Part shown: piece after piece, positions 1 to 42,321 of the stretch
How the letters are laid out: each line of letters begins with the position of its first letter
Numbering within the stretch: the first letter of the stretch is position 1
Source: a virus
Taxonomy: Duplodnaviria > Heunggongvirae > Uroviricota > Caudoviricetes
Virus record (IMG/VR): IMGVR_UViG_3300029305_005988
Location: 59,096 to 123,095 of that record
DNA length: 64,000 nucleotides
Reading direction: 5' to 3' (one strand)
Program-made: the position numbers and the translations under genes
The notes under the pieces: model-generated
Seen by the model: only the letters and a program-made list of their open reading frames with translations
The model's database searches: none
What the model was told of the DNA's origin: nothing

Positions 1-72
1 TTATTTAATTCAATGGAAGAGCGTGATGCAGAATTTCGTAGAATATGGGATATTTTAAGCAAAGGCGCATAA
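1..72 (+). CDS. 3' end of upstream gene (partial, ...LSKGA*)
   Basis: open frame from window edge to TAA at 70-72, followed by terminator hairpins. Confidence 0.3.
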   Translation, partial: LFNSMEERDAEFRRIWDILSKGA

Positions 73-125
73 TGTGCGCCTTCTTTTTTCGGCCGGCCCG
101 CTTACCTACGCCGCGGGCCGTTTTA
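63..125 (+). terminator. tandem rho-independent terminators (two GC hairpins + T-runs)
   Basis: ggcgcataatgtgcgcc+ttctttttt then ggcccgc..gcgggccgtttta. Confidence 0.6.
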
Positions 126-181
126 TGCAATTTGCACAAATTAGCATCTTTTTTTCTTCAAAACTTTGTTACTTTTGCCTA

Positions 182-210
182 TTGACATTATCCCGCTTTT
201 ATGGTATAAT
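182..210 (+). promoter_or_regulatory. sigma70-like promoter TTGACA-17-TGGTATAAT (early class)
   Basis: ttgaca 182-187, tggtataat 202-210, RBS aaaggaaagggg before ATG 245. Confidence 0.6.
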
Positions 211-244
211 TAAGGTACAGTAAAGGAAAGGGGTACTACATACT

Positions 245-553
245 ATGATTAACATTCGTTCAATACTCAAACTCAAAAACAACGACGGCTTGACTCTCAA
301 GAAGGGCGCGCCCATCACCTACAAAAGCGGTTATCAGGTAGCGACCGAGGGTATAGAGTGCAAAACCGCAAGAGAGGCAATTAACGCGGTAAAGGCATAC
401 GGCGGTAACTGTGGAGTGTGGCTATCCGATGGCGTGTTTTATATCGATAAATCACATAGGGTCAACACAAAAAAGGAAGCGCTTGAAGTCGGTCGGGCGC
501 ATAATCAAATCTCCATTCTCCGTTGGCGCGATATGGGACTTGTCTATTGTTGA
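245..553 (+). CDS. hypothetical protein (102 aa)
   Basis: ORF with upstream consensus promoter and RBS. Confidence 0.55.
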   Translation: MINIRSILKLKNNDGLTLKKGAPITYKSGYQVATEGIECKTAREAINAVKAYGGNCGVWLSDGVFYIDKSHRVNTKKEALEVGRAHNQISILRWRDMGLVYC

Positions 554-618
554 CAAGTCCCGAGCCAAAACTTTGTGCAAAATGCCATATTGACAAAAGC
601 AAGGATATATGGTATAAT
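549..618 (+). promoter_or_regulatory. promoter with TTTGTGCAA box, TTGACA 590-595, TGGTATAAT 610-618 (second TTGACA at 549)
   Basis: motifs seen directly; drives 655-867. Confidence 0.55.
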
Positions 619-654
619 ATATATGTAAGATAAAGAAAGGAAAGGTACACACCT

Positions 655-867
655 ATGATTAAAATGGACATTCTCGATTTCGGTATTTATGAGGACGGCA
701 CGCATATCGCAGACTTTGACGATAAGGAAAGAGCCGTCAAATATGCAAGAGCCAACGCAACCACAAGAAAAAAGAATACCGTGGTCATTTGCAATTTCAC
801 GGGCGAGGTTATTGCTGAATATACCATCGTCACAAATACAGTAGTGAAAGAGTGGGTGGCGGACTAA
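655..867 (+). CDS. hypothetical protein (70 aa)
   Basis: ORF after promoter/RBS aaagaaaggaaagg. Confidence 0.5.
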
Positions 868-893
868 AATCCGCCCCTACAAGGGGGTACATA

Positions 894-1244
894 ATGAAAC
901 CATTAAATATTCGCAGAGGTCAAATTTACTACGCAGACTTATCACCTGTCATTGGAAGCGAACAAGGCGGTATGCGCCCAGTGCTTATCATTCAAAATGA
1001 TATAGGCAATAGTCATGCGCCCACGGTTATCGCGGCGGCTATCACCTCGCGCCTTTCAAAAGCAAGCCTTCCCACACATATCGAAATTCGCAAGTGCGGT
1101 TTGACGAAAGATAGCATTGTTCTTTTGGAACAGATTAGAACACTCGACAAGCGCAGACTTAAAGCGTATATGGGAGAACTTGACGAAAACACTATGGCAC
1201 AAATTGATAAGGCAATTATGATTAGCTTGGGGGTAGAGGTATGA
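894..1244 (+). CDS. mazF: MazF/PemK-family endoribonuclease toxin
   Basis: RGQIYYADL...[32 protein letters not shown] matches MazF/PemK core; ATG 894 with RBS. Confidence 0.8.
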
Positions 1245-1615
1245 AAATTTATATGGCAAGCGCAATGTTCACCGAAGAACAAAAGGAAAGAATAGATAAA
1301 CACGCAAGGCTCTTGAGGGCTATGGGGCATACAGTATATGTCCCCCACGAGTTCAAAGTTCCCGATGCAAAAGACCTAACCAATGAAGAATGGGCAAATG
1401 AGGTTTTCCTCGAAGATATTCATCAACTCGACGAGTGTGATGCTATCTATTATTTTTGCGAGGGGATGGAGGGTGACCTTGGCTCTGCTTGGGAATGTGG
1501 CTATGCCTATGCAAAAGGAAAACAGATATTCGTCGATGAATTATCATACAGCACTGAAATCTCTTTAATGGTGGCACAATGCTCCAGTAATGAAATTTCA
1601 AGTTATCAAAGTTAA
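1241..1615 (+). CDS. nucleoside 2-deoxyribosyltransferase / dNMP N-hydrolase (DNPH1/Rcl)-like
   Basis: [10 protein letters not shown]...[17 protein letters not shown] resembles NDT/Rcl fold signature. Confidence 0.55.
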
Positions 1616-1616
1616 G

Positions 1617-1680
1617 AGGGCGCCCGCCCTCTTTTCTTTTTTCCGACGGCTCGAAAACTAGGGTTCCGAGCCGTTTTATT
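1617..1680 (+). terminator. tandem terminators
   Basis: agggcgcccgccct+cttttc and cggctcg..cgagccgtttta. Confidence 0.55.
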
Positions 1681-1735
1681 CGTGGGCTAGCATTTTGCAC
1701 AAAAATCGGCGCAAAACTTTGGTGATTATTACCTA

Positions 1736-1764
1736 TTGACAAATCCCGATAAATGTGGTATAAT
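1736..1764 (+). promoter_or_regulatory. early promoter TTGACA/TGGTATAAT
   Basis: ttgaca 1736, tggtataat 1756. Confidence 0.5.
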
Positions 1765-1896
1765 AAGTATGTCAAGAGGAAGAGAGCACCCAAGCAACAG
1801 AACCACAGACCCCGACAGACACCAAGTCGACAAAGGTAAATGGATAGGGGCGAGAGGAACGGCACAGACCCTCTCACGAAAAAAAATGCATATTTT

Positions 1897-1935
1897 TTCA
1901 AAACCTCTTGACAAATACATAAAAGTATGGTATAA
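1897..1935 (+). promoter_or_regulatory. early promoter with UP-like ttttcaaaaacctc, TTGACA, TGGTATAAT
   Basis: cctcttgacaaatacataaaagtatggtataat. Confidence 0.6.
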
Positions 1936-1967
1936 TATATATACCAAAGGAAAGAGAGGAAATACTT

Positions 1968-2231
1968 ATGATTAAGAAATCTACTATCGAGGGCAAGAGC
2001 GCAAGTGCCTACTGTTTGATTGAGGATATTCTCTATCAAAACAAGGACTGCTATCTTACAAAAGAAGAAATCTATATGCGTATGCCTTGCGACGAAGATG
2101 GAGTTCCGCTTGTGACTATCGGCAGTTTGGAAAGTGCTTTGCGATGCTTGTGCCACACAAGAGAAATCGAGTGCGAGTATATCCGAGGCAGACGGCACTT
2201 TGCATATCGAGAAGCAAGAGAGCGAAGATAA
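1968..2231 (+). CDS. hypothetical protein (87 aa)
   Basis: ORF with promoter+RBS. Confidence 0.5.
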   Translation: MIKKSTIEGKSASAYCLIEDILYQNKDCYLTKEEIYMRMPCDEDGVPLVTIGSLESALRCLCHTREIECEYIRGRRHFAYREARERR

Positions 2232-2301
2232 TCGCTCTCATACATAAAAATAAAGGCGCGCACTAGAAAAAATTGGAAATGCGCGCAAAAGGAGAAGAAA
2301 T

Positions 2302-2625
2302 ATGGCAAAAATTATTCATCTTGAATACGACCTCATCGAGTTTGATGATGGCACTACAATCACCGCAGATCATTGTCAAGACTGTTGCGAGTGGAACTAT
2401 GCAGACTGTCAACAGCTTGATGATTTGGCAAGAGCCTACGATTTTGATACCAAACACTTGTTTTTTGAAGCGGTTGAAGAACAAGGATTTCGCTTTGGTG
2501 ACAATCCGTGGAGAATGTTTTTTGTTCCTTGTTATTCTTCACAGAATGGCTATTATTCAAGCGATATCGACATTTATCTCAACGGAGAAAAGAAACTCAA
2601 CTTTCTTTGCAAAGAAGATTTCTAA
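2302..2625 (+). CDS. hypothetical protein (107 aa, Cys-rich)
   Basis: ORF with RBS aaaaggagaagaaatatg. Confidence 0.5.
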   Translation: MAKIIHLEYDLIEFDDGTTITADHCQDCCEWNYADCQQLDDLARAYDFDTKHLFFEAVEEQGFRFGDNPWRMFFVPCYSSQNGYYSSDIDIYLNGEKKLNFLCKEDF

Positions 2626-2626
2626 A

Positions 2627-2662
2627 AGAGGGCGCAGAGTAATCTGCGCCTTTTGACTTTTA
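2627..2662 (+). terminator. rho-independent terminator
   Basis: gggcgcagagtaatctgcgcc+ttttgactttt. Confidence 0.6.
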
Positions 2663-2728
2663 TAAAATTTTATATTATAATATAAATGTAAAAAGAAAAT
2701 AAATAGAGATACAAGGAGGTCACGCGGT

Positions 2729-3031
2729 ATGAAGTATCACTTCATCCACGCTCTTGTCGTAACTCAATTTGAATCATCACTAACCCCTCTTGATTGGGAA
2801 ACCCTCTCGGCGCAAGACTATCCCCTTCACGCGCTTTATTGTGAAGAGTTGGGCGCCCTTCTTTTTCATTCTGACAATCAAAAAAATGATTGTTCGAATA
2901 TGATTTCATTCTTAAAGGAAATATTTAAAATTTTAAACATTCCTGCTGAATGGGAAAATAAAATTATAATTATGAGTGATGATGAAAATGAGTACAGCGC
3001 GCAAGACGTGTTGAAACACTTCAGCCATTAA
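2729..3031 (+). CDS. hypothetical protein (100 aa)
   Basis: ORF with RBS acaaggaggt. Confidence 0.5.
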   Translation: MKYHFIHALVVTQFESSLTPLDWETLSAQDYPLHALYCEELGALLFHSDNQKNDCSNMISFLKEIFKILNIPAEWENKIIIMSDDENEYSAQDVLKHFSH

Positions 3032-3159
3032 GCTGACGGACGAAAGCGGTCGCGCCTAGTCCGATTTTCCGCGACTTAGACCTCTTACACATTTGCCGCG
3101 AACTTTGTCGAATGTTCGAGGCTTTTTCTTTTTCCTGCAATTACCTATGCGCAATTTAA

Positions 3160-3205
3160 AGTGCCGGCCGGCGCCTTTGCGTTCGCGCGGCGCCGTTTTG
3201 TGCAT
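3160..3205 (+). terminator. terminator hairpin ggcgcc..ggcgcc + gtttt
   Basis: seen in sequence. Confidence 0.45.
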
Positions 3206-3254
3206 TTTGTATACTTCTCGCCATTTTTCGCGCGAAAGTTTGTGCAACATTACT

Positions 3255-3290
3255 ACTTGACATTTTCCCGATTGTATGGTATAATAATAA
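3255..3290 (+). promoter_or_regulatory. early promoter (TTTGTGCAAC box, TTGACA, TGGTATAAT)
   Basis: cttgacattttcccgattgtatggtataat. Confidence 0.5.
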
Positions 3291-3447
3291 TGTCAAGAGG
3301 GGAACCTCGTGCGGAGAAAACAGTGGCAAACATAGACTTGGAAAGCAGTAACCTTTGTGCGCACAAGGATAAACACAGAAACAAACGGTCTACACTACTA
3401 GGCGAGTATCGGAGATAAGAAAAATAGTTGCAAATATTTTTCGAAAA

Positions 3448-3482
3448 CCTCTTGACAAAACTACATACTTGTGGTATAATAT
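3448..3482 (+). promoter_or_regulatory. early promoter
   Basis: cctcttgacaaaactacatacttgtggtataat. Confidence 0.55.
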
Positions 3483-3595
3483 AAGTGTGAAAGAGAGGTA
3501 AACACTTATGATTATTGAAAATATCATTATGGCTACTTTATATATCATTTTAGGAATGGGAATTGAAGAAGTTATAAGGGAGATAATGGGAAAAA

Positions 3596-3778
3596 ATGAT
3601 TAAATGTCCAAATTGCGGTAGCACCGCACAACCCGAGCCTTTTGAGGTACAATATCATGAAGATGGTTGGACTATATATGTAGAGCGTTGGTATCGTTGT
3701 GGCTGTGGACACGGCTTTGTTACCTCTACAACCTACGAAAGTGATGGAGATGAGGAAATTATAGATGCGTGCATTTAG
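3596..3778 (+). CDS. zinc-ribbon protein (60 aa; CPNCG...CGCG); terminates at TAG (would extend 5 codons to TGA if TAG is sense)
   Basis: ORF, Cys pairs; stop is TAG, which is otherwise unused as stop in this window. Confidence 0.45.
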   Translation: MIKCPNCGSTAQPEPFEVQYHEDGWTIYVERWYRCGCGHGFVTSTTYESDGDEEIIDACI

Positions 3779-4019
3779 AACCTTTTTCAACCTTGACCGC
3801 CCTTATGAGTTCGATATCACAGACCTCACCGCCTTAATTTATACAATATGCGCCATAGGCGGTATGATGGGCGCAAACATGACAATACTATGGTGCATTG
3901 GCGCAACAATCGCAACCGCTTTCTGTTGGGAAGCGCGCAAAATCAACCTTGTAGTTCTCAATCTCGCCCTTTGGGTGATGAATATGTGGAACTTATTTCA
4001 AATGATAATCGGAGGTTAA
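3765..4019 (+). CDS. small membrane protein (84 aa)
   Basis: hydrophobic ORF overlapping previous stop. Confidence 0.45.
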   Translation: MRAFRTFFNLDRPYEFDITDLTALIYTICAIGGMMGANMTILWCIGATIATAFCWEARKINLVVLNLALWVMNMWNLFQMIIGG

Positions 4020-4177
4020 TATGTGGAAAATTAGAGTACACACAATAGATTGTCAAAGGGGATTTTATCTTACTCCAACTTTTAAAACAGAAGAAGAAGC
4101 AGTTGCCTATGCAGTAAAAACAGATGTTGCTTGGCGATTTAACGCCTACTGCACCTATGAGCAGAAAGGAGAATAAT
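4020..4177 (+). CDS. hypothetical small protein (52 aa)
   Basis: ATG directly after previous stop, RBS aggaggttaat. Confidence 0.35.
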
Positions 4178-4339
4178 ATGAAAGTCAAAACCTACATTTA
4201 TGAAGCCAATGGCTTTATTAAAGGTCGCATGGTAGCCAAAAACAAACGCGAGGTAAAAAAGCAAATTCTTAAAACCGTTGCACTGTTTTGTCCTACAAGA
4301 GGACTTGAATATATGAAGATTAAGAGGATAAAAGAATGA
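4178..4339 (+). CDS. hypothetical small protein (53 aa)
   Basis: ATG after RBS aaaggagaataat. Confidence 0.4.
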   Translation: MKVKTYIYEANGFIKGRMVAKNKREVKKQILKTVALFCPTRGLEYMKIKRIKE

Positions 4340-4554
4340 AAGCAAAATTCATACTTGAAAAAGACGAAAGTCACAAGATAAGACAAATGCTTGACGATAT
4401 TCCAATCGACCTTTGCAGATATGTAACTTGTCCCGACGAACTTGACGGTAACTGCGATGCCTGCCCCTTGCTTGCCATTTCAGACAGTTGGAGCAGAGGA
4501 TTGGAACTCCTTTGCGACCAGACAAGCGAAGCATTAAAAAAGATTGAGGGGTAA
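4336..4554 (+). CDS. hypothetical protein (72 aa)
   Basis: ORF, ATGA overlap. Confidence 0.45.
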   Translation: MKAKFILEKDESHKIRQMLDDIPIDLCRYVTCPDELDGNCDACPLLAISDSWSRGLELLCDQTSEALKKIEG

Positions 4555-4558
4555 AGAT

Positions 4559-4759
4559 ATGGAATATGTATATCTTATTTCCGACGAGGTTCACGGACTT
4601 TATTGTATTTGTGCAAACAAAGATAAGGCAACCGAAATTGTAGACGATATTAGTCATGGTTGTTATGGATTGCCAAAAGAAACCAAACCCGACTATGATA
4701 ATGAAAATTGTTATGGTTATGATGGTGCGGCTTCTTGGAAAAGAGTAGAGGTGGTTTAA
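4559..4759 (+). CDS. hypothetical protein (~66 aa)
   Basis: ORF after RBS gaggggtaaag. Confidence 0.4.
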   Translation: MEYVYLISDEVHGLYCICANKDKATEIVDDISHGCYGLPKETKPDYDNENCYGYDGAASWKRVEVV

Positions 4760-4800
4760 ACCACCTCTTTTCTTTGGTCGGCACGGCGGCGCCCGTCGCC
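4751..4800 (+). terminator. tandem terminators
   Basis: ggtggtttaaaccacc+tctttt and cggcacggcg..cgccctgccg+ttttt. Confidence 0.5.
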
Positions 4801-4885
4801 CTGCCGTTTTTGTGCAAATTGCACAATTCCACACCTTTTTTCGCCAAATGTTTGTGCAACTTGACGAAAAGAAATTTCCCAAAAC

Positions 4886-4946
4886 CGCTTGACATTCACC
4901 GCCTTTTGTGGTATAATATTATCGTAGTCAAGGGGCGAAAGGTTAA
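4886..4946 (+). promoter_or_regulatory. promoter + conserved leader (copy 1 of duplicated tggtataatattatcgtagtcaaggggcga)
   Basis: near-identical to 7222-7280. Confidence 0.5.
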
Positions 4947-4994
4947 CGGCAGAGAAAAACCGACCACCGCAACTCGAAAAAATTTTTCAAAAAC

Positions 4995-5035
4995 TTTTGA
5001 AAAACCCCTTGACAAATCATTCAAAGTATGATATA
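4995..5035 (+). promoter_or_regulatory. early promoter (cccttgacaaatc...tgatataat)
   Basis: seen. Confidence 0.5.
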
Positions 5036-5071
5036 ATATAAGAGCAGTAAGGAACAAGAGAGGAAAACCAA

Positions 5072-5509
5072 ATGACGATTTATTTTGATATGGACGGCAC
5101 TATTGCAGACCTCTATGGGGTACAAGGTTGGCTTGCTGACCTTGAAGCGCACAATCCTCGTCCGTATGAAGAAGCGCAAGTCATGCACAATATGTCCGCG
5201 CTTGCAAGAGCATTGAATACGGCACAGAGCAAGGGCGCACGCATAGGCATTATATCGTGGCTATCCAAGACCGCAACCGAGGACTATAACAAAGCGGTTG
5301 AAAAAGCCAAGCGCAAGTGGCTCAAAAAGCACCTTAAGTCCGTTCAGTTTGATGAAATCCATATCGTGCCGTATGGCACTCCAAAATCGTCCGTTGCCAA
5401 GAGCGTGGGCATACTGTTCGATGATGAGGAGCGCAACCGCGCCGAATGGAGTAAAGGACGCGCATATCCGCCCGAAAAAATCTTTGAAATTCTCAAAGAA
5501 ATTTCGTAA
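5072..5509 (+). CDS. HAD-superfamily 5'(3')-deoxyribonucleotidase (NT5C)-like
   Basis: N-terminal DMDGTIADL (DxDGT motif I) and ILFDDE motif. Confidence 0.55.
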   Translation: MTIYFDMDGTIADLYGVQGWLADLEAHNPRPYEEAQVMHNMSALARALNTAQSKGARIGIISWLSKTATEDYNKAVEKAKRKWLKKHLKSVQFDEIHIVPYGTPKSSVAKSVGILFDDEERNRAEWSKGRAYPPEKIFEILKEIS

Positions 5510-5608
5510 AACCTCTTGACAAATCCGTCAAGATGTGATATAATAATAATGTCGAGAGGGAGAGGAAGCAATCCCCTATGACAGAAAGAGAGGAAAAAGA
5601 AAAATCCA

Positions 5609-6346
5609 ATGAACATTCTTGTGTTTGACACCGAAACCGCTGGGTGCTGTACCCAAACTTTGTTAAATATCGGTTATTGCGTTGCCGATATTGACTTGAC
5701 CACATTCAAGTATCGCATACTCAAAGGTCGTGACTATCTTGTAGGCAAACACTACAAAAATCGTCTGTGGCTCTTGAACGATATGTTCGTCAAGGCAGAA
5801 AAACTTGCCAAGTTCGACTATAATGTTGAAAATGGCTCGGCAATTCTCCGCACCGAGAAGCAGATTTTCGAGCAAATGGCGCGCGATATTGACCGCTATG
5901 GTATTCAGTACGGCTTTGCGTATAACTGTCAATTTGACGAGGACAAATTCCGCAGAACCGCGACCGCGCTCAATCTCCTTAATCCGCTTGACAAAATCGA
6001 GGTTGTGGATATTTGGACGAACGCGCAACTTGCAATTTGCGCTACCGAGGACTATATCGCATTTTGCAACGAACACAATCTCCGTACCCCAAGTGGTAAG
6101 TATATCCCAACCTCTGTTGAGGGTGTAACCGCTTTCCTTAACAATGATAAAGAATTTGTTGAGGAACACACCGCGCTCTCCGATGTTCAATGGGAATTGC
6201 GTATCCTTTGCGAATTGGGTAAGAGAGGTTGTAATATCTTCCAAGTACCCACGCATAATGGCTGTCTCACTCCCGAAGGTGAATGGGTATTCCCATTCCA
6301 CAAGCGCAAGACCGAATTTGACGATGTAACCACGGGGAGAGAATAA
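5609..6346 (+). CDS. DEDDh (DnaQ-like) 3'-5' exonuclease
   Basis: Exo I VFDTETAG, Exo II YNCQFDEDKF, Exo III HTALSDV. Confidence 0.7.
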   Translation: MNILVFDTETAGCCTQTLLNIGYCVADIDLTTFKYRILKGRDYLVGKHYKNRLWLLNDMFVKAEKLAKFDYNVENGSAILRTEKQIFEQMARDIDRYGIQYGFAYNCQFDEDKFRRTATALNLLNPLDKIEVVDIWTNAQLAICATEDYIAFCNEHNLRTPSGKYIPTSVEGVTAFLNNDKEFVEEHTALSDVQWELRILCELGKRGCNIFQVPTHNGCLTPEGEWVFPFHKRKTEFDDVTTGRE

Positions 6347-6377
6347 TCTCTCCCCACAAAAAAAATAAAAAAATTTT

Positions 6378-6415
6378 CAAAAACCTATTGACAAATACCA
6401 AAAAGTATGGTATAA
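6378..6415 (+). promoter_or_regulatory. early promoter
   Basis: ttttcaaaaacctattgacaaataccaaaaagtatggtataat. Confidence 0.55.
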
Positions 6416-6491
6416 TATAAATGTAAACAAGAGGGAAACCTCAAAATAAAAATAATATGGGTTGCGACCTACCGCAAGAGAGGAAAAAATT

Positions 6492-6902
6492 ATGGCAGAA
6501 ATCAAGGAAATCAAGTACACGCAGAAGCAGATGTTCGAAGCAATCCTCGCAGAGACTGACCGCACCGACGAAATTGGCGGTATTCCGTCCGCAGTTTTCA
6601 AGGCGTTCGCAGAGAAGAAAATTGCGCAGTTGGAGAGTAAGTCGGGCAAGACGAGCGCAAAGCGCACCGAGGAACAGGACGCTTTCATGGAAATTATCCG
6701 CGATGTTCTCGCAGAGTATCCCGATGTCAAGGGTATGCAGTGCGGCGCGGTCGCCAAGGACGAGCGTATTGCTTCGTTCAAGTGGGCAGACGGCAAGGAA
6801 ACCTCGGCGCAGAGAGTGTCGGCTATGCTGAAGAAGTTGGCCGACTGCGGTGATGTGATTAAGACCACGGACAAGAAAGTCACCTACTTTCGCCTTGCAT
6901 GA
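6492..6902 (+). CDS. small-protein paralog family member (MAEIK...; family with 7475-7903 and 16508-16897)
   Basis: shared N-terminal MAE(I/K)K, central DILAEV..G.LTVG, C-terminal K.V.Y(F/Y).LA. Confidence 0.55.
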   Translation: MAEIKEIKYTQKQMFEAILAETDRTDEIGGIPSAVFKAFAEKKIAQLESKSGKTSAKRTEEQDAFMEIIRDVLAEYPDVKGMQCGAVAKDERIASFKWADGKETSAQRVSAMLKKLADCGDVIKTTDKKVTYFRLA

Positions 6903-6929
6903 GTGAGGGGCGCAAGCCCCTCTACATAT

Positions 6930-6999
6930 CGACGGGTAGTTTAGTGGTTAAAACAGTCCGTAGGAAGGACAGAGGTGAGTTCGAGGCTCACACCGTCGC
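6930..6999 (+). ncRNA. tRNA-like element (perfect T-arm gtgag/ttcgagg/ctcac, 6/7 acceptor; anticodon unclear, possibly AGG)
   Basis: cloverleaf-like fold seen by eye; no CCA. Confidence 0.3.
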
Positions 7000-7070
7000 A
7001 GAGCATTAAATCCAAAACCCCCTATGCGCAAGGAGCGGTGAGAAAGTGAGAATGCTCAACCCATGGGATA

Positions 7071-7138
7071 GACCTCTGCGACGGCAGAGGTCTTTTTTCT
7101 TTCGTCGGCTCAGTGGCGGTCGCCACTGAGCCGTTTTG
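7071..7138 (+). terminator. tandem terminators
   Basis: gacctctgcgacggcagaggtc+tttttt and cggctcagtggcggtcgccactgagccg+tttt. Confidence 0.65.
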
Positions 7139-7221
7139 TGTGTTTTTATGCAAATTGCACAATTTTTCCGCCAAAATCTGCCTAAATTTTGTGCAAATTA
7201 TTTTCCCATTTTCTATTGACA

Positions 7222-7280
7222 AATTTTCATTTTTGTGGTATAATATTATCGTAGTCAAGGGGCGAGGGTGAGTTAAAACC
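7222..7280 (+). promoter_or_regulatory. promoter + conserved leader (copy 2 of duplicated element)
   Basis: ttgacaaattttcatttttgtggtataatattatcgtagtcaaggggcgaggg. Confidence 0.5.
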
Positions 7281-7374
7281 TCGAAAAAAATCTCCTCATT
7301 CTTCAATGTGAAACAAATGCGATAAAGTAGCATTGAGAATAGTATCGCAAAAAATTTTTGAAAAACTTTTCAAA

Positions 7375-7412
7375 AACCCCTTGACAAAAGCCACGAAATG
7401 TGGTATAATATA
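7375..7412 (+). promoter_or_regulatory. early promoter
   Basis: ccccttgacaaaagccacgaaatgtggtataat. Confidence 0.55.
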
Positions 7413-7474
7413 AGTGTAGTAAGGGAGAGCCACTCCCCACTAACAAAAAATAAAAATAAAGAGAGGTAGAAAAA

Positions 7475-7903
7475 ATGGCAGAAAAGAAGATTACCAAGAG
7501 AGAGAAGAATGAACTCCTTATCGCCGTACTTAACGGCAGAGTTCCCACCGAGGACGAGAAGAATATGCTTATCGAGCATATCACCCACGAGAACGAACTC
7601 CTTGCTCGTAAGGGTAGCAAGTCCGCAACCGCAACCCCTGCACAGAAGGACGCGCTTGCCGTCAGCGAGATTATCAAGGATATTCTTGCCGAGGTCGAGG
7701 GTAAGGGTTTGACCGTAGGCGCAATCCTTAAGGACGAGCGCATCAAGTCCTATGTGCGCCACAATGGAGAGGGTGTGTCCTCGCAGATGGTCACCTCTAT
7801 CTTCTCCAAGAACCCCAAGGATTTCGTGCGTACCGTCGAGAAGAAGGTCGCATACTACGCCCTCGCTTATGGTGAGGTCGTAGACGAGGGTGAGGGGGAT
7901 TAA
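7475..7903 (+). CDS. small-protein paralog family member
   Basis: see 6492-6902. Confidence 0.55.
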   Translation: MAEKKITKREKNELLIAVLNGRVPTEDEKNMLIEHITHENELLARKGSKSATATPAQKDALAVSEIIKDILAEVEGKGLTVGAILKDERIKSYVRHNGEGVSSQMVTSIFSKNPKDFVRTVEKKVAYYALAYGEVVDEGEGD

Positions 7904-7944
7904 CCCCCCTCTCCCCACGGAGAAAAATTTTTTCAAAAAGTTTT

Positions 7945-7985
7945 ACCAAACCTCTTGACAAATAGCCAAAGGTATGGTATAATAT
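7945..7985 (+). promoter_or_regulatory. early promoter
   Basis: cctcttgacaaatagccaaaggtatggtataat. Confidence 0.55.
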
Positions 7986-8019
7986 ATATGTCAAGAGGAT
8001 AGAAAGAGAGGTAAACAGT

Positions 8020-8445
8020 ATGGCAAGTATGTATACCCCCTACACCTTAAAAGGTGGCAAGGTGGTCAATGTGCCGAATAAGGCGGTCGCCAATCTGCAA
8101 GCACAGTTGAAACTGTCAAGAGCCGAAGCGGTTGAGTTGTGGCTTTATGACGAGGGATATATCGAGTGTCCCGAAGCAGACGAGTTGACCGCCAAGGCAA
8201 AAGAGAATAAAGTATCTCATGGGGCGCGCGCCGAGAATAAGCAGAAAACGCAGAGAGAGCGCGTGGTGAAAGAGGACAAGGTCAAGGAAGCAATTATCCA
8301 AGCGGTAGCCGATATGCTCCCCAACCTCAATGCCGAGAATGTGATTATTGAGAAAAAGGGAAAACTTATCACCTTTACCGTGGGTGAGGATAAATTCAAG
8401 TTTGACCTTATCCGTCAGCGACCGCCCAAGGAAAGCAAGGGGTGA
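8020..8445 (+). CDS. hypothetical protein (141 aa, charged)
   Basis: ORF with RBS agagaggtaaacagtatg. Confidence 0.5.
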   Translation: MASMYTPYTLKGGKVVNVPNKAVANLQAQLKLSRAEAVELWLYDEGYIECPEADELTAKAKENKVSHGARAENKQKTQRERVVKEDKVKEAIIQAVADMLPNLNAENVIIEKKGKLITFTVGEDKFKFDLIRQRPPKESKG

Positions 8446-8485
8446 AAACCCCTTGCTACATAAAACGAAAGCGAGGAAGAAGAAA

Positions 8486-8695
8486 ATGGCTAAAACTATG
8501 GAATTTACTTGTCCCGAATGTGGCGAAGATATTTTCATTGACGAGGTTGATGCAACGGTTGAGGATATGGTTGCCTATATCAAAATGACTTGTTGCAGTT
8601 GTGGAGCAGAATGGACTGATACCTTTCGCTTGACCTATAACGGATACGCTATGGGCAGTGAAGTTTGGGATAAGAATGGAGAGAAAATCGTATGA
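8486..8695 (+). CDS. zinc-ribbon protein (69 aa)
   Basis: CPECG...CCSCG; RBS gaggaagaagaaaatg. Confidence 0.5.
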   Translation: MAKTMEFTCPECGEDIFIDEVDATVEDMVAYIKMTCCSCGAEWTDTFRLTYNGYAMGSEVWDKNGEKIV

Positions 8696-8928
8696 CGGCA
8701 TATGAAGAATTGAAAGCGTGGTGCGAGAAACACCTTGGAGATAAATATAGAATAGAGATAATACCTGAAACAACTGAATATTATACAACAATGTATATTC
8801 TCAAGGGTGAGGAAGAGATATTTTACGCCGCCTTTGATGCCGAAGAATATTTCATTGGAATGAGCAGTGCCACTTGGGACGAGTTCCAAGAACATATTGA
8901 ATTGGCAGAAAGAGAGGGAAAAATATAA
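8692..8928 (+). CDS. hypothetical protein (78 aa)
   Basis: ORF, ATGA overlap. Confidence 0.5.
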   Translation: MTAYEELKAWCEKHLGDKYRIEIIPETTEYYTTMYILKGEEEIFYAAFDAEEYFIGMSSATWDEFQEHIELAEREGKI

Positions 8929-8948
8929 GCGCCAAACGCACTAAAAGA

Positions 8949-8976
8949 AAACAGAGGGTAAAGCCCTCTGTTTTTT
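8949..8976 (+). terminator. rho-independent terminator
   Basis: cagagggtaaagccctctg+ttttttat. Confidence 0.65.
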
Positions 8977-8989
8977 ATCTGCACCAATC

Positions 8990-9210
8990 GCGTTCACATC
9001 TTGTTCACAATTCGACGGGTCGCTAGCCATCGGCTAGCCCCGACTTCCACATTCCACTACCATTCCATATATACGCGATCGAAAAATGGTTGTTTCAATT
9101 TCACTCTCATTTTCCCGCAAACCTAGACCCTTGCTCTATACCGGGCGCCTGAACTAGCGCGGGCCGCGGACAATCGCGAAAGCCCGTCTAAGGCCTAGAC
9201 TAGCACCTTC
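8990..9210. repeat. GC-rich palindrome/iteron-like non-coding block (gctagccatcggctagc, cgcgggccgcg, cctagac x2)
   Basis: local GC well above the flanks; palindromes seen directly. Confidence 0.4.
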
Positions 9211-9587
9211 CATACTTTATACGCCAACTTTTGCTGTTTGTTTCATTTAATTATTTTCCTATAATTAGCATTTTTATCAATTTTTTCGCATAATATGTGA
9301 ATATTTTATCAAAAATGCCATGTTTTAATGTATTTTCCTTGTTTTAGTTCTTTCAATAGTGCTAAAATTTAATCACAGAAACAAAAATATGACAATGCGC
9401 GCCTAGATTCAAGAGAAAAAGTTGATTTTTAGTGAAAATTATGGTATAATATAAGTAGAAAATGAATAGTGGCGCAATAGCAAAGAAGGAGGTTGCTGTT
9501 GGGTCAAGAGAAGAAAGTTTTTAGGGAAGCCGTGACTTGGGGGTAGTGTAGGTGCGCATTTCCAAAATTTGGTAAAAATGTAAAAAT

Positions 9588-9618
9588 ATGGAAAGGCGCT
9601 TAATTCGCGCCTTTCTTT
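9588..9618. terminator. bidirectional terminator hairpin aaaggcgcttaattcgcgccttt
   Basis: T/A runs on both sides; closes minus-strand module. Confidence 0.5.
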
Positions 9619-9701
9619 AGTCTCCAGTCTGACACTAATATTGGACAGTCTCCAAACTCTGACTTAAAGCGCAAACGCGCCGCAGCAAAGTATCCTTTTT
9701 C

Positions 9702-10274
9702 TTTAGAGATGTCTTCGCCCTGCTCTTGACGATAAAAAGCATTAGCTGCTTCAGACTCAGATATATGTTCTTCAAACATAATTTGGCGCCAACGTTCTAG
9801 AATCTATTGATCAAGAGGTTCGTATGTGCTATACCATACCCAGCGCCTAACGCCATTAGATTCTCCATATTCATCAAATACGGGACCAACATAGCGCTTA
9901 CTTACACCCTGTACATTATCATGCCCATACTTCTCTCTGCCAAAAGCGCATAACGCTTCACGAGTAGTTTTAGCTTTGCTATTAGGCTTAAACTCAGTAC
10001 CAAGCGCAGCAATAGTAAACATCTTGTAATCTTCTTGTTTTTGCGCCGTAGAAATTAAATTCTTGCGCGGTAAAGGTTGATAGGTGCCATAAATCTCATT
10101 AATTTTAATACGAATTGGGCGCCCATCCAATAATTCATAGTCATAGAAGTTGCTAATATGTTCTAACAACTCTTCTCTACGGGACTCCCATTGATTCTTT
10201 TTAATACCTGTCAATAGCCAGAATTCTTTTTTAAAGTCATAAATGTGTCCTACTTCAATTTGCATATTATTCAC
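9702..10274 (-). CDS. hypothetical protein; in-frame TAG at 9804-9806 (157 aa to TAG, ~190 aa if read through to TAA 9702)
   Basis: ORF 9804-10274 plus 34 open codons after TAG; RBS aaaggagtgaataat. Confidence 0.45.
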
Positions 10275-10459
10275 TCCTTTCTTAATTGATAAATAGCAAC
10301 TTCTCCTGAAAATTTGTCCTTATCTATAATATATATAGGGACAAAAATTAGGGTAGAAGTTTCTCAGGAAGACTTCTTCCTATTCATATTTATATTAAAA
10401 AAGCAATAGATAAATTAACTAATTTTGACCAAGCGCCGAACCTCGATTTATACTTCTTA

Positions 10460-10590
10460 AACCTGGACCCGCGCCAAAAAAGAGGTATGCGTTAGCATAC
10501 CCCTAGGGCGCCGATCTCTCCTTTATATCGACGCCCTCTCCTTTATCTCCTAGTCCATAGTATTATTAACCTGGACCGGCGCTTACATCA
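10460..10590. repeat. direct repeats aacctggacc(c/g)gcgc x2 and ctctcctttat x2
   Basis: seen in intergenic region of minus module. Confidence 0.4.
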
Positions 10591-10945
10591 ATCCTTTGAA
10601 GAAATCTTCATCATTAAACTTCTCTTGCATCTTCAATAGCTGAACATACATAGGGATCATCTTCTCCATCTTAATGATTGCGGTCTCCAGCTCCTTGATA
10701 TCTTCTTCAGTCCACTCTTCTCCATCTTCAAAGAGGTCAAATGCCTCAGTATATGCGAGAACTGCATTAATCAAATAGGCGCGGCCTTCTTGGAGAAGAT
10801 CTTCTTTACTCTTTTGATTTGCAGCAGCTTCTTGCTCTGCGCGCAATGCTTCTTCTTGTCTAGCTTTTTCTGCGCGGATGTCGGCTAGCGTCTTTTCAAT
10901 TTCCTCTTCAGAAGCTCCATTCCAGATCATTTCTTCAATATTCAT
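10583..10945 (-). CDS. hypothetical acidic coiled-coil protein (120 aa)
   Basis: ORF; AT-rich-class promoter on minus strand at ~10955-11010. Confidence 0.5.
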   Translation of the reverse strand: MNIEEMIWNGASEEEIEKTLADIRAEKARQEEALRAEQEAAANQKSKEDLLQEGRAYLINAVLAYTEAFDLFEDGEEWTEEDIKELETAIIKMEKMIPMYVQLLKMQEKFNDEDFFKGLM

Positions 10946-10954
10946 TAGTTTATA

Positions 10955-11010
10955 TCTCCTTTACTTTTCTATATATATTATATCATATTTTTTATATTAT
11001 TTCAATAAGG
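10955..11010 (-). promoter_or_regulatory. minus-strand promoter (ttgaaataatataaaaaatatgatataat)
   Basis: reverse complement matches second promoter class. Confidence 0.45.
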
Positions 11011-11111
11011 AAGACGAAGACGAGGGATGGGAGATGGTGGTTCTGGAGTCGGTTGCACCACACATCCACACTCTCTTATGCTCTCTTATATTTTTTTATA
11101 TTTTCTTATAA

Positions 11112-11372
11112 TTATAATACAATCTCCCACCACTTTGTATCTTCACTTAATATTCCTTCTTCTTGCAATCTTACTGTATACCAATATCTTGCATCAATTT
11201 CTTTTAACATCTCTTCTCTATCCACATTGTTTTCAATCATATCTTCTAATCTTTCTATCCATTTATTCTATTCTTCTACTATTACCACTCCTGCATGACT
11301 TAAACAATTAATCTAATCTTCATATTCCTTTTTTGCTTCTGGATATTTCTCCAACAACTCTTTTAACATCAT
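11112..11372 (-). CDS. hypothetical protein (86 aa) with 2 in-frame TAG
   Basis: RBS aaggagggttatagaatgatg; MMLKELLEKYPEAKKEYED*INCLSHAGVVIVEE*NKWIERLEDMI...; ends TAA. Confidence 0.45.
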
Positions 11373-11386
11373 TCTATAACCCTCCT

Positions 11387-12099
11387 TAAAAATTAAATCC
11401 AGCAATTTTCTTCTTTATCTCATCCTCATCTTGATCGTGGACGCAGTCCACGGGAGGGATAGACGAAGTCTTTCCCGACAAATTCTAATTATAATCATAA
11501 TTCTAATTATAATCATAATTCTAATAAGGAAACTTTGGAAACTTGGAAACATTTCCAGTTTCCTTAATTCCATCACAACTTTCCAAACTTTCTTGGAAAC
11601 TTTCAGAAACATTATCTACAATTTCCATATTTCCTAATGTTTCCAAACTTTCTTGGAAATTTCCAATGTTTCCAGAAATTTCTGGAAACTTTCCTAATGT
11701 TTCCTTATTTTCCAGTAAATGTGGAAACTCTGTGCGGATTTTTGTAAACATTTTTGATACTGCTGGCGGCTGAACTCCAAGCTCGCGGGCAATTGCCGCC
11801 TGTGTCATACCACTATTTTTCATTTCAATAATTCTACGATATTTCTCTTCAGAAGCAGCTATTTTAGCATCGTACCTATTCTTGCTTTGCGCAATTCTAT
11901 CTACATATCCTTCAAGAGCATCTTCAATATTCATATCATCACTACTAATATCTCCAGTAAGTATAGCTTCTAAAAAACTAATTGCATACTCTCCACCTTT
12001 AACAGGGTCTCTTTGATACCACTTCTTTGCCGTTTCAAACATCTTTCCATATACAATACCACTTTTTCTTACAGGATTGTTTTTAAACTCTTTAATCAT
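11387..12099 (-). CDS. HTH-containing protein (MTQAAIARELGV) with repetitive C-terminal tail; TAG at 11521-11523 (core 11521-12099 = 192 aa)
   Basis: ORF 11521-12099; if TAG is sense, extends through 18-bp tandem repeats (QNYDYN x2) to TAA abutting next RBS. Confidence 0.5.
11461..11520. repeat. 18-bp tandem repeat aattctaattataatcat x~3
   Basis: seen directly. Confidence 0.7.
11530..11700. repeat. repeat-rich block (ttccaaactttcttggaaa / tttccagaaatttctggaaa variants)
   Basis: multiple direct/inverted copies seen; encodes SFQESLE-type repeats. Confidence 0.6.
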
Positions 12100-12123
12100 T
12101 TCCGATACCTCCGATCCCTTATT

Positions 12124-12300
12124 TTAAACCTAAGACAATTTGCGCATAGCCTCTTGTAACTCAAGACTATCTTCAAATACATAATTATCAAAATAAGGCT
12201 TCTTCTCGTCAGGTACCACTCTAATAATCTTAAATCCCAACTTGCGCAATTCATACGCCATTTTTCGAGTGTAAATCACTCTTTCATTCATTTGATCCAT
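12124..12300 (-). CDS. hypothetical small protein (~58 aa); TAG-GTT-TAA at 3' end
   Basis: MDQMNERVIYTRKMAYELRKLGFKII...; starts overlapping previous TGA. Confidence 0.4.
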
Positions 12301-12484
12301 TTCCGTTTACGCGGCGCAAATAGTTCTCTAATTGCTACTTCACCCAAGCGGCAGGCGCATCCCTGTTGATAAACTTATAAAGCTAATCAGGATTATCTAA
12401 TTTTGCCTCTTGCGCAATCAACTTATAAGTATAACCTTTTACGCGCATCTCCTTTAACTAAAATATTATTTCTTCACGAGTCAT
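12288..12484 (-). CDS. small HTH protein (65 aa) with 3 in-frame TAG
   Basis: MTREEIIF*LKEMRVKGYTYKLIAQEAKLDNPD*LYKFINRDAPAAWVK*QLENYL...; RBS gaaaggagttagaaatg. Confidence 0.45.
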
Positions 12485-12509
12485 TTCTAACTCCTTTCAC
12501 TATTATATA

Positions 12510-12580
12510 AAAATTAAGGTAGTAATTGTATCTATTTTTGTCCAAATTTTTTACCATAATACTACCTTAATTTGCCAATT
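12510..12580. repeat. inverted repeat aaggtagta...tactacctt (9-bp arms)
   Basis: seen; possible operator/terminator between minus genes. Confidence 0.4.
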
Positions 12581-12745
12581 TTTCGACGATATGTTCTTTT
12601 CATGTTTTTTCTTATCTCGTCATCTTTAATTGATCTGCAACAATCTGTTGTTATTCCACCTTTTTTCAAAAGCAAATTCAATTAAAATCGTAACAAAATC
12701 GTGTTGGTTTGAAATGCGCCTAATCTTGCCCATTGGCGCCTTTTA

Positions 12746-13102
12746 TTAACAGCCATAAGTCTTCTTTATATCATGAGTAGCATATTCCAAATGGTCAGTC
12801 ATTGCGCGAATATTTGAAAGATCAAACTGTGTAACAACCTCATCTTCATTCTAATCTAATCGCCGCTCTAAAGCATTTACTCTATCCACTAACTTATCTA
12901 CATTAGCTTCAGCGCTAATTAATCTCCAAATCAAATCTCGTAAATCATAATCAGCATCTCCAATGTGAATGATAATAGTCTGCTCTCGAAGAATAGATCT
13001 TGGAAGACCACTTAACATCTCATAATCAATCACTTCTTGTTCACATGTAATATCAACAGGCTAAGACATAAAAATCTCTTTATCAAAACTATCTATCATC
13101 AT
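12746..13102 (-). CDS. hypothetical protein with 2 in-frame TAG (ORF 12851-13033 extended both ways)
   Basis: MMIDSFDKEIFMS*PVDITCEQEVIDYEMLSGL...RRLD*NEDEVVTQF...; ATGA overlap with upstream gene. Confidence 0.4.
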
Positions 13103-13515
13103 TCTACCTCTCTTTTATAGTGTAGTGTTTTAAGCGCCGATCGTAGCTCAGAGCATTCTTTTTTAGGCACAAAATTCTTCTTAAGGTCATTGATTTGCGC
13201 ATCTATCCTCTTAATTTCTGTAATAAGGCTATCAGTTATATTTTCAATAGCATAGTCATTAGCCTTAATAACTCCACTACAATACAAATTACCGCTATTC
13301 GCACTAGCTATTCCATAAGCGGTGTTGCTTCCTTCAGTTGCTAAATCAAAAGTACAATCAACCTCCGTCGCAGAGTCCGCGCTGAGACTTAAACTGCAAT
13401 CTTTAATATATCCCTTCATTACCTCATCACCGTTTGCACTATAACAAGCAACCGAGTAGGGTCTATTAAAACTATCTCCAAACCATGCTTCATTTGTTTT
13501 CTACCAAATAGCCAT
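13099..13515 (-). CDS. hypothetical protein (138 aa) with TAG at codon 5; C-terminal LKTLHYKREVE motif
   Basis: MAIW*KTNEAWF... joins ORF 13099-13419; C-terminus shared with 32256-32477. Confidence 0.5.
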
Positions 13516-13516
13516 T

Positions 13517-13994
13517 ATTTACCTCCACTCTTTTCGCTACAAATTCCAATATTTATCATATAATCCAATAACCCCAACTGTTTTATAATGGTGCGCTCGG
13601 CGCCTTCAGGCAGCTTGTGGTCAAAAAATAATTTAATTTCATAGTTATCTCTTTCAAATGGCGACAATGCTTCAACTTCTCCCTGCTCATAATCAATAAC
13701 TAAAAGCTAATCTCCATTATCGAAACAGGTAATCACTTTTCCATCTAATTGAAGCGCACTTTTTATTCCAATTTCAGCTTTAGCATGTGCCTCTATATCC
13801 ATTTGCGCAAGGTCTTGAATATATTTACTGCCTTTTGCGCCAATCATAATGTATTTAGTTGGAGTATATGGTGTAAAATCTATGCTTTCTTTCTCGCAAA
13901 GCCGCTATAGGCGCCGATTCTTCACTATTAGTCGCCCATAGTCAAACCCAATATATGTCAATATCAAAAATAAAAACAATCCCGTCCAGAACAT
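13517..13994 (-). CDS. membrane-anchored hypothetical protein (~159 aa) with 2 in-frame TAG
   Basis: MFWTGLFLFLILTYIGF... hydrophobic N-terminus; RBS aaaaggagaagcagatg. Confidence 0.4.
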
Positions 13995-14109
13995 CTGCTT
14001 CTCCTTTTATCTCTTTAATCTTTTATACACTTTAATTATACAATAAAATTAAAATAAAGTCAAGTGTTCCTTCCCATCAGCACCTTTTCAATTACCTTTT
14101 ATTTTCTAA

Positions 14110-14160
14110 TTGATTTTTTGAAAAAAATATGATAAAATATATGTGTAAATAAAAGAAAGA
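14110..14160 (+). promoter_or_regulatory. AT-rich-class promoter (ttgattttttgaaaaaaatatgataaaat)
   Basis: second promoter class consensus TTGATTTTTAATAAAAATTATGWTATAAT. Confidence 0.5.
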
Positions 14161-15249: not shown

Positions 15250-15414
15250 ATGGTTCAAGGTGTTTGTAGCAATTGCGGCGCTAGTTTCTATCTTAATCTA
15301 GAAACAATTAAAGAATATGCACAAGAGCATAATCAAAAATTAAATGAGGGTGTTGAAGTATGGTGTCCTCATTGCAATGCAGTGCATCTGCTTCGTTTAG
15401 AAGATAAATAGTGA
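15250..15414 (+). CDS. zinc-ribbon protein (54 aa); ends ...TAG TGA
   Basis: CSNCG...CPHCN; TAG immediately followed by TGA. Confidence 0.45.
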
Positions 15415-23075: not shown

Positions 23076-23201
23076 GGAGTGGTAGCCCAACAGGCAGAGG
23101 CAATGGACTTGTCTGATGTTCGGTAACCTAGACTGGGTCAGCACCAGTATCAGGCACCAAAAATCCATCAAGTGAGGGTTCGAATCCCTCTCACTCTACC
23201 A
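23076..23201 (+). ncRNA. 126-nt tRNA-like gene with 55-nt insertion in anticodon loop
   Basis: acceptor ggagtgg/tcactct, D-arm gccc..ggc, anticodon stem atgga/tccat enclosing 55 nt, T-arm gaggg/ttcgaat/ccctc, CCA; own upstream promoter. Confidence 0.4.
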
Positions 23202-29460: not shown

Positions 29461-29539
29461 ATAAGTAATCGAAAGTTCATTGATAATTGCATAAGAAAAT
29501 ATATAAGACATCTATAAAAGAAGGAGTTGAATTTATTAT

Positions 29540-42319: not shown

Positions 42320-42321
42320 AT

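Follow-up and report, generated by a model that had tools for sequence, protein, structure and literature searches.

The locus described here raises a simple question: why should a small group of phage genes, turned against nearly all of their neighbours, be rich in TAG codons when the early genes beside them have none? It lies in a 64,000-nucleotide stretch of DNA (hereafter the window), positions 59,096 to 123,095 of IMG/VR record IMGVR_UViG_3300029305_005988. The source is a large tailed phage, the contigs of whose relatives measure 97-143 kb. The genes of the window are nearly all on the plus strand and its GC skew is below zero only across about 9-14 kb, where a block of nine small minus-strand genes (9600-14063) lies between the immediate-early region (1-8930) and the middle/replication region, which starts at 14175. 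Comparison with relatives indicates that TAG is decoded as glutamine in this phage, and a suppressor tRNA gene is present in the window. We lean, with some reserve, towards a suppressor-timed block, in which TAG would act as a translational delay or threshold on a conserved divergent gene set.

Gene content of the inverted block

With TAG read as sense, nine minus-strand open reading frames (ORFs; G1 to G9), each with a Shine-Dalgarno site, tile 9600-13994. This agrees with a preliminary description of the DNA, made from the sequence alone, which had placed a minus-strand gene block at 9588 to about 14000. The block comprises four apparent transcription units and 1201 codons. On the minus strand its coding density reaches 87% if TAG is sense, and 55% either under code 11 or with TGA as sense; the re-annotation with code 15 proposed in that description thus restores the genes, and standard-code annotation shatters them. 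The genes are as follows.

13515-13994, minus strand: G1, 159 amino acids (aa), N-terminal membrane-type helix; TAG at codons 30 and 96
13099-13515, minus strand: G2, 138 aa; TAG at codon 5
12746-13102, minus strand: G3, 118 aa; TAG at codons 14 and 83
12287-12484, minus strand: G4, 65 aa, resembling a helix-turn-helix (HTH) protein by eye only; three TAGs (codons 9, 34 and 50)
12127-12300, minus strand: G5, 57 aa, weak DUF5659 match; TAG at the penultimate codon
11386-12099, minus strand: G6, 237 aa, sigma-4/LuxR-type HTH; TAG at codons 193, 199 and 205
11112-11372, minus strand: G7, 86 aa, good ribosome-binding site; two TAGs
10583-10945, minus strand: G8, 120 aa, acidic; the sole TAG-free gene of the block
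9600-10265, minus strand: G9, 221 aa, winged-helix similarity; TAG at codon 154

Screening against Pfam, PHROGs, NCBIfam and PADLOC gave a function for none of the nine proteins. G6, with its HTH, and G9, for which structure prediction gave a confident model similar to winged-helix proteins only, are predicted to bind DNA. The small HTH proteins of the preliminary description can therefore be recognised in G6 and G9, and in G4 by eye only; its several membrane proteins reduce to one, G1 alone having a membrane-type segment. The G9 family holds 263 homologs (190 cluster representatives) and has no Pfam match. A profile search of 1.84 billion proteins with G9 returned stand-alone homologs and no informative fusions, and a PDB sequence-profile search gave no match. 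G2, G3, G7 and G8 have no recognisable features, although in G2 the N-terminus and a C-terminal LKTLxYxxEVE motif are conserved around a variable middle. Orthologs of G1 occur in relatives L001, L003, L034 and L035, and those of G8 in L001, L003, L011 and L034; G7 is the sole block gene for which no homolog was found. A further ORF (12514-12681) was discarded, having no usable start codon in the window.

TAG as a glutamine codon

Homology to relatives runs across the TAG codons of G1, G2, G3, G4, G6 and G9. In six cases a TAG of a relative aligns with a glutamine of the window, including the invariant Q100 of G6 and the conserved Q25 and Q63 of G9. Thus L032 has TAG at Q100, a position invariant in the G6 family, and the G9 ortholog of L010 (93% identical) has TAG at two family-conserved glutamine columns, KKNQWE and GxYQPLPRK. 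Conversely, L035 has real glutamine codons where codon 14 of the window's G3 and two genes of L003, L032 and L034 have TAG; its version of G3 retains TAG at codon 83. In the L001 ortholog of G4 (91% identity) codons 9, 34 and 50 are TAG, TAG and a glutamine codon. Cases were counted only when checked on DNA, because some database proteins are already translated with TAG as Q. The Q that database protein P0001 shows at the TAG position of the window's G9 was discounted on this ground as circular, the underlying DNA also being TAG. All accepted genes end in TAA or TGA, under an ORF definition that itself took TAG as sense, and in two genes, G5 and 15250-15414, a TAG stands one or two codons before the stop.

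The means of decoding is found in the window itself.

42166-42351, plus strand: suppressor tRNA unit, consisting of promoter, tRNA (CUA) and terminator

The promoter is TTGATT-17-TATAAT (42166-42194) and the terminator a hairpin at 42325-42351. The tRNA (42221-42319) has the anticodon loop CU-CUA-AA, a cloverleaf fold and a score of 56.3 bits against the Rfam tRNA model; ARAGORN mislabels its anticodon as 'taaa'. Its acceptor end, U1-A72/G73, is that of the phage tRNA-Gln(UUG), and its extra arm is unusually long (the variable region measures 28 nt and includes a 7-bp stem), which sets it apart from an ordinary tRNA-Gln. Since eight of the nine block genes contain TAG, their full-length products need this tRNA, in agreement with the suppressor dependence already suspected.

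Recoding of TGA was considered and rejected. A tRNA(UCA) called by ARAGORN at 26200-26275 (labelled SeC, selenocysteine) carries G33, has mismatches in its stems and does not figure among the Rfam hits; TGA terminates 25 of the 76 accepted plus-strand genes, and taking it as sense adds no coding density.

Density of TAG

Fifteen in-frame TAGs were counted in the block, where about 13 had been estimated, giving 12.5 per 1000 of its 1201 codons: three each in G4 and G6, two each in G1, G3 and G7, one each in G2, G5 and G9, and none in G8, the one in G5 being ambiguous in this count as a penultimate codon. In the 59 plus-strand genes at 14-64 kb only 11 of 11,944 codons are TAG (0.92 per 1000; odds ratio 13.7, Fisher p = 7e-10), and one of these 11 falls upstream of the likely true start of an RNase H-like gene. 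TAG makes up 29% of the glutamine plus TAG codons in the block and 2.7% elsewhere. The confirmed early genes have none, as had been described; two apparent TAGs of the early region precede the conserved portion (as judged from relatives) of ORF 3657-4019.

The plus-strand TAGs outside the block are mainly in GIY-YIG homing-endonuclease-like genes, such as 24501-25265 and 45405-46133, the former of which (4 TAGs in 254 codons) matches the density of the block. The claim that the block shows the densest TAG usage consequently applies to the window only, because the late genes of the phage lie outside it, and there it is shared with this homing-endonuclease gene.

Enrichment is also seen among relatives, where counts are based on crude automatic gene calls. 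In 12 relatives pooled, TAG accounts for 35 of 7957 codons in the block and 45 of 26,068 in the flanks (odds ratio 2.6, p = 5e-5). Enrichment is most marked in L001 (11 of 1222 codons in the block vs 8 of 2968 in the flanks), L003 (8 of 957 vs 1 of 3110), L024 and L025.

Position and content of the block in relatives

Searches of the GenBank phages with the block, G9 and G1 (blastn, tblastn) gave no match. Relatives were found in IMG/VR and among metagenome contigs, as independent assemblies from IMG/VR, ENA, Logan and JGI. In every relative recovered the block, or at least G9, is inverted between the same early and middle genes. G9 is the conserved anchor; the content is otherwise mosaic, as these inverted blocks illustrate.

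L001: G1, G2, G4, G5, G6, a GIY-YIG gene and G8
L003: G1, G2, other HTH genes, a GIY-YIG gene, G8 and G9
L034: G1, a DUF5659-like gene, G6, G8 and G9
L035: G1, G2 and G3, then genes of the L003 type
L013: a nucleotidyltransferase gene and others, plus G9
L021, L022 and L031: G9 alone
L020: about 25 genes

Since position and inverted orientation are the same in all relatives, the site appears as a conserved architecture with a variable payload and not as a recent insertion. The preliminary description had offered an acquired mobile module as one possibility, and an assembly artefact as what an identical position in TAG-free relatives would indicate. The opposite strand, the mosaic content and a slightly atypical codon usage might be cited for an acquired cassette, or for an artefact of assembly or pseudogene decay; we consider either very improbable. 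The same arrangement recurs in independent assemblies from several collections, and the GC content at third codon positions (GC3) of the block, 0.32, equals that of the neighbouring middle genes. No integrase, transposase or recombinase was detected among the nine proteins (Pfam, PHROGs, NCBIfam, PADLOC), nor were repeats found to bound the block. The position is indeed conserved, yet TAGs are present in the closest relatives as well, in part at identical codons, which rules out an assembly artefact, and the conservation of protein sequence across the TAGs excludes pseudogenes.

Relatives hold a TAG-rich GIY-YIG gene within the inverted block. The GIY-YIG-like genes were recognised by sequence motif, and one HNH gene was confirmed by Pfam (24501-25265, 29538-30176, 45405-46133 and 35083-35787 in the window; about 4667-5008 in L001; 9355-9744 in L003).

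Promoters and the proposed timing of expression

Two classes of promoter were distinguished. Class A comprises 13 perfect TTGACA-N14-TGG/TGA-TATAAT sequences at 182-7983, with one weaker consensus-type site at 2653-2681. Class B has weaker -35 variants (TTGATT, TTGAAA, TTGACT) with an extended -10, and is found at 9422 and across 14-58 kb. Two promoter-like sites were recognised in the block.

14035-14063, minus strand: promoter-like site of G1, TTGACT-17-TATAAT (11/12), sigma-70-like
10977-11005, minus strand: promoter-like site of G8, TTGAAA-17-TGATATAAT with extended -10, sigma-70-like

The former belongs to a divergent promoter region, its plus-strand partner being TTGATT-17-TAAAAT at 14110-14138. 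Both sites are of class B, as are the promoters of the middle genes and of the suppressor tRNA. The AT-rich promoters attributed to the block do exist, then, at 14063-14035 and 11005-10977, but they are not private to it, and a late cassette is not indicated, the recognisable promoters sharing their class with plus-strand middle genes. The correlation of relative synonymous codon usage (RSCU) points the same way, being 0.66-0.75 between the block and the middle and replication genes and 0.23 between the block and the early genes.

If the block is suppressor-timed, its mRNAs would appear together with the suppressor tRNA, since the promoter class is shared and the codon usage is AT-rich and of the middle type. 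Its proteins would be completed only after the suppressor had accumulated, in a translation environment modified by the phage, with a steeper response for genes containing more TAGs, such as G4 with three in 65 codons. Evolution keeps TAG tolerance in the block and not particular sites, and TAG swaps freely with CAA and CAG between relatives.

The same TAGs could have accumulated through tolerance without regulation, an explanation that we take seriously while thinking it somewhat the less probable. The block genes would then be dispensable, fast-evolving accessory genes, expressed once the suppressor is present, in which unselected changes from CAA or CAG to TAG build up as a by-product and not as a timer. 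A number of observations weigh in this direction and against a timer. Over aligned glutamine/TAG columns the retention of CAA is 80%, of TAG 57% and of CAG 41%; lying between the other two, TAG therefore behaves as an ordinary synonymous glutamine codon, and neutral accumulation is enough to explain its turnover. The 93%-identical G9 genes of the window and L010 have one and three TAGs, respectively. The block is a mosaic in its content, and with 28-52% identity its proteins have diverged faster than the flanking genes (60-93%). The distant relatives L013 and L020 have the inverted block but almost no TAG. TAG is dense in selfish homing-endonuclease genes too (24501-25265, 45405-46133), which fits tolerance better than design, and the TAG rank of the block covers the genes of the window, outside which the late genes lie. 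The timing itself is deduced from promoter sequences only. The G4-G7 and G9 units have inverted repeats and no -35 element, and their control may differ. The codon usage of the block is somewhat atypical for middle genes (r = 0.75 vs 0.89 +/- 0.05 for equally large subsets of genes drawn at random).

Tolerance, for its part, has difficulty with the conservation of G9, G6 and the G4-G5 unit in many lineages, which makes them not obviously dispensable, and with the persistence of several TAGs, codon for codon, in lineages that are 31-67% identical. These are codon 30 of G1 (window, L001 and L003), an HTH "RTxxNL" site and a DUF5659-like "GHxVF" site (L003, L032 and L034); the codon-96 TAG of G1 is likewise shared, with L035. 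TAG-free early genes adjoin the block in every relative, which implies a selective boundary under either explanation.

G6 and its embedded repeat array

The model of G6, which covers residues 1-192, shows a folded helical domain with the sigma-4/LuxR-type HTH (residues 1-131) followed by a predicted disordered region (132-192). The G6 family (29 homologs) conserves a C-terminal end of the form [KR]F[DNE]F, and translation therefore runs through the repeat stretch that precedes it. G6 and its homologs match Sigma70_r4, HTH_3 and DUF6291 weakly, all below curated cut-offs. Three DNA features lie within the gene.

11528-11727: TTTCCA/TGGAAA array of 13 motifs inside G6, ending in GTTTCCAAGTTTCCAAAGTTTCC (11528-11550)
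11487-11527: AT-rich stretch of two 18-nt tandem units, adjoining the array and carrying the three TAGs of G6
11437-11451: GC-rich palindrome GTGGACtgcGTCCAC, after the AT-rich stretch

What had been described as a protein with a repetitive tail is thus a real repeat in G6, but the feature is an array at the level of DNA: copies of the motif stand in each of the three reading frames and in either orientation, which argues for a constraint on the DNA.

A possible but somewhat improbable explanation, drawn by analogy, is that the core of the block is a replication origin or another site-specific DNA module, with G6 binding the TTTCCA array in its own gene; it is compatible with both readings of the TAGs. 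The concentration of the motif fits, 13 of the 73 copies in the window falling within about 200 bp (11528-11727), in every frame and orientation. Orthologs with 44-75% protein identity still have the array, although the peptide that it encodes varies and is predicted to be disordered; GTTTCCAAGTTTCCAAAGTTTCC is identical in L001. The order of array, AT-rich stretch and GC-rich palindrome is kept in four lineages (window, L001, L032 and L034). Relatives without G6 have other short-repeat arrays at the matching place in the inverted block, beside other HTH genes (L003, 9078-9311; L013, 8870-9149), with the repeats TTTGTA(C)AAA and AAACTTTATACAA. G5-like genes, moreover, adjoin a winged-HTH gene in the replication regions of other phages.

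Origins located inside the gene of their own initiator are found in lambda O (ori-lambda) and in SPP1 gene 38 (G38P; oriL). As there, array, AT-rich stretch and palindrome lie within the gene of a (predicted) DNA-binding protein, and the embedded part of G6 encodes a disordered linker. Unlike these initiators, G6 has a transcription-factor-type HTH and shows no similarity to them in sequence or fold, and its motif has a 6-bp core in place of a long iteron of 18-22 bp. A similar picture would be expected of an operator array, a packaging site or a partition site. In L033, a distant small phage, a G6-like gene lies between the replication and terminase genes, just upstream of the terminase. The interval between replication and terminase genes is a typical place for late-gene activators, which tells against an origin. 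G6 resembles such activators of Firmicutes phages, with their sigma-4-like HTH, and DUF6291 proteins in its weak matches and in this placement; for the conserved N-terminal helical domain of its family (ISFxExxLTGDISSDD) and for the C-terminal FxF end, no counterpart has been described.

Should the block be suppressor-timed, one might go further and suppose that the code switch, beyond lysis and structural genes, gates DNA-binding regulators, and maybe an origin-like site embedded in one of them, with the number of TAGs per gene setting a cooperative threshold on the level of suppressor tRNA that times the switch from early to middle and late expression. Products truncated before suppression might then act in their own right, for instance a 29-residue membrane peptide from G1, or a G6 without its conserved C-terminal FxF end. 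This we regard as unlikely in so specific a form.

Leaders, terminators and the non-coding border

The regions upstream of G4 and G9, and the terminators of the minus-strand units, are as follows.

12485-12745, minus strand: non-coding leader of G4, with 240 nt that are 91% identical to L001
10275-10400, minus strand: region upstream of G9, with a conserved -10-like element (10388-10396) and a hairpin (10366-10381)
10481-10504, minus strand: intrinsic terminator-like hairpin after G8, from the terminator scan
9591-9615: terminator hairpin at the 3' end of G9, meeting the scan criteria on the minus strand only

The G4 leader has a -10-like TATATAAT (12502-12509) with no -35; a 13-nt inverted repeat, AATTAAGGTAGTA (12512-12524 and 12560-12572), covers the -35 position. 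Upstream of G9 there is an inverted repeat TTTGTCC-N19-GGACAAA (10313-10345), both arms of which are changed in L003 and L013 (TTTTGTGT...ACACAAAA). Both upstream regions, that of G4-G7 and that of G9, look from their sequence like regulated promoters.

Such inverted repeats over promoters (12512-12572 and 10313-10345) are what a lysogeny, immunity or plasmid-maintenance module might show, with the block as a repressor/anti-repressor or partition region. The divergent orientation beside early genes, the several HTH or winged-helix proteins and the weak RepB/ParB-type matches of some G6 homologs would suit it. We nevertheless find it improbable: a scan of the block and ten other window proteins revealed no integrase, recombinase, S24-peptidase/CI-type repressor or ParA, and the published lysogeny genes avoid recoded stops, which is the opposite of the pattern seen here.

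The block is bordered on its G9 side by a region to which the preliminary description had ascribed 600 bp of non-coding DNA with GC-rich palindromes, as is borne out.

8975-9590: conserved non-coding border, with a GC-rich hairpin (9017-9044) and a plus-strand promoter (9422-9450)

No gene was accepted in the border, which contains just short TAG-containing ORFs, judged spurious; nor did it match any Rfam family. In L001, L003 and L010 its DNA is better conserved than the neighbouring proteins. The hairpin at 9017-9044 (GCTAGCC/GGCTAGC) shows compensatory changes in L003 (GCCTACC/GGTAGGC) and L013 (GTCAAGG/CCTTGAC), and the border may represent either a structured RNA or a DNA site to which a protein binds.

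The terminator hairpin at 9591-9615, described earlier as bidirectional (9588-9618), satisfies the terminator scan in the minus direction only; it also ends a short plus-strand transcript from the 9422-9450 promoter. This transcript is a candidate small RNA (9422-9615, plus strand) of about 150 nt, running from the conserved class B promoter into the hairpin. Its 3' half (9524-9580) is near-identical in four lineages, and its 5' half is variable or absent. A short ORF in the transcript (9458-9600) was not accepted as a gene, since neither its 5' part nor its ribosome-binding site is conserved. Matches to the core motif in L015, L017 and L018 were likewise dismissed as chance occurrences in unrelated GC-rich DNA.

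Comparison with other recoded phages

Gut phages that use code 15 (TAG to Gln) and carry their own suppressor tRNA have been described (bioRxiv 10.1101/2021.08.26.457843; Peters et al., PMC9523058; Babkin et al., phAss-1, PMC10607447). In these, recoded stops are found chiefly in structural and lysis genes and are avoided by those lysogeny genes that were examined (integrases) (bioRxiv 10.1101/2021.08.26.457843; PMC9523058; PMC10607447). Recoding as a timer for later genes, with standard-code genes expressed first, is a published model (Borges et al., bioRxiv 10.1101/2021.08.26.457843). The present phage resembles the code-15 gut phages in its TAGs aligned with glutamine, its tRNA(CUA) and its TAG-free early genes, and the order of expression proposed for it, standard-code genes before recoded ones, is shared. 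It differs in that the TAG-dense set is a divergent block at the early/middle boundary encoding predicted DNA-binding proteins, together with homing endonucleases, in the unusually long extra arm of its suppressor tRNA, and in the want of any GenBank phage relative for the block. Phages of the phAss-1 type (PMC10607447) were rejected as its lineage, the block, G1 and G9 being unmatched in the GenBank phage collection.

The suppressor-timed reading extends the published recoding timer, proposed for lysis and structural genes, to a block between early and middle genes, and is a variation on the known code-15 pattern. Provided that the dependence has a function, the switch of code would act upstream in the developmental programme and not at its end alone. 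The standard code, besides breaking up the block, hides two widespread families for which libraries give no confident match, those of G9 and G6.

Other features of the window

The host is suggested to be Firmicutes-like because of the strong Shine-Dalgarno sites and sigma-A-type promoters. The window has at least 27 tRNA genes, most at 18.8-31.7 kb, and encodes a full sigma-70-family factor (36813-37619), an RNA ligase, a RecJ-like protein, a MazF-type toxin and a vault-protein-like protein of 829 aa. On inspection of N-terminal sequences alone, downstream ORFs resemble topoisomerase, ligase, helicase and primase genes.

In the immediate-early region the 13 class A promoters have A/T-rich upstream tracts and are spaced about 0.1-1.6 kb apart. 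A palindrome, TTGTGCAAATTGCACAA (119-141, 4806-4828 and 7142-7164), precedes those at 182, 4889 and 7216 and may be an operator. The gene of the MazF/PemK-type toxin (894-1244) sits among the immediate-early genes.

The GC3 of the early genes (class A region) is 0.51 and that of the middle and replication genes 0.33-0.34. RSCU correlates at 0.46-0.48 between early and middle/replication genes and at 0.94 between middle and replication genes. The early genes may be tuned to the tRNA pool of the host and the later ones to the phage's own tRNA genes.

Across the whole window GCGC is in excess (438 observed vs 93 expected from base composition), and ACGT (10/224, observed vs expected), CCGG (23/93), GGCC (37/93) and GATC (101/224) are depleted. 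The depletion of these tetranucleotides suggests restriction avoidance, beside the unexplained excess of GCGC.

The 829-aa protein (32561-35050) contains a major-vault-protein shoulder domain; its phage relatives, at about 40% identity, are in the huge phages LR756500-LR756503 only. Lastly, the tRNA gene at 23076-23198 (Rfam, 43.7 bits; missed by ARAGORN) has a 52-nt insertion in its anticodon loop, which may be an intron.

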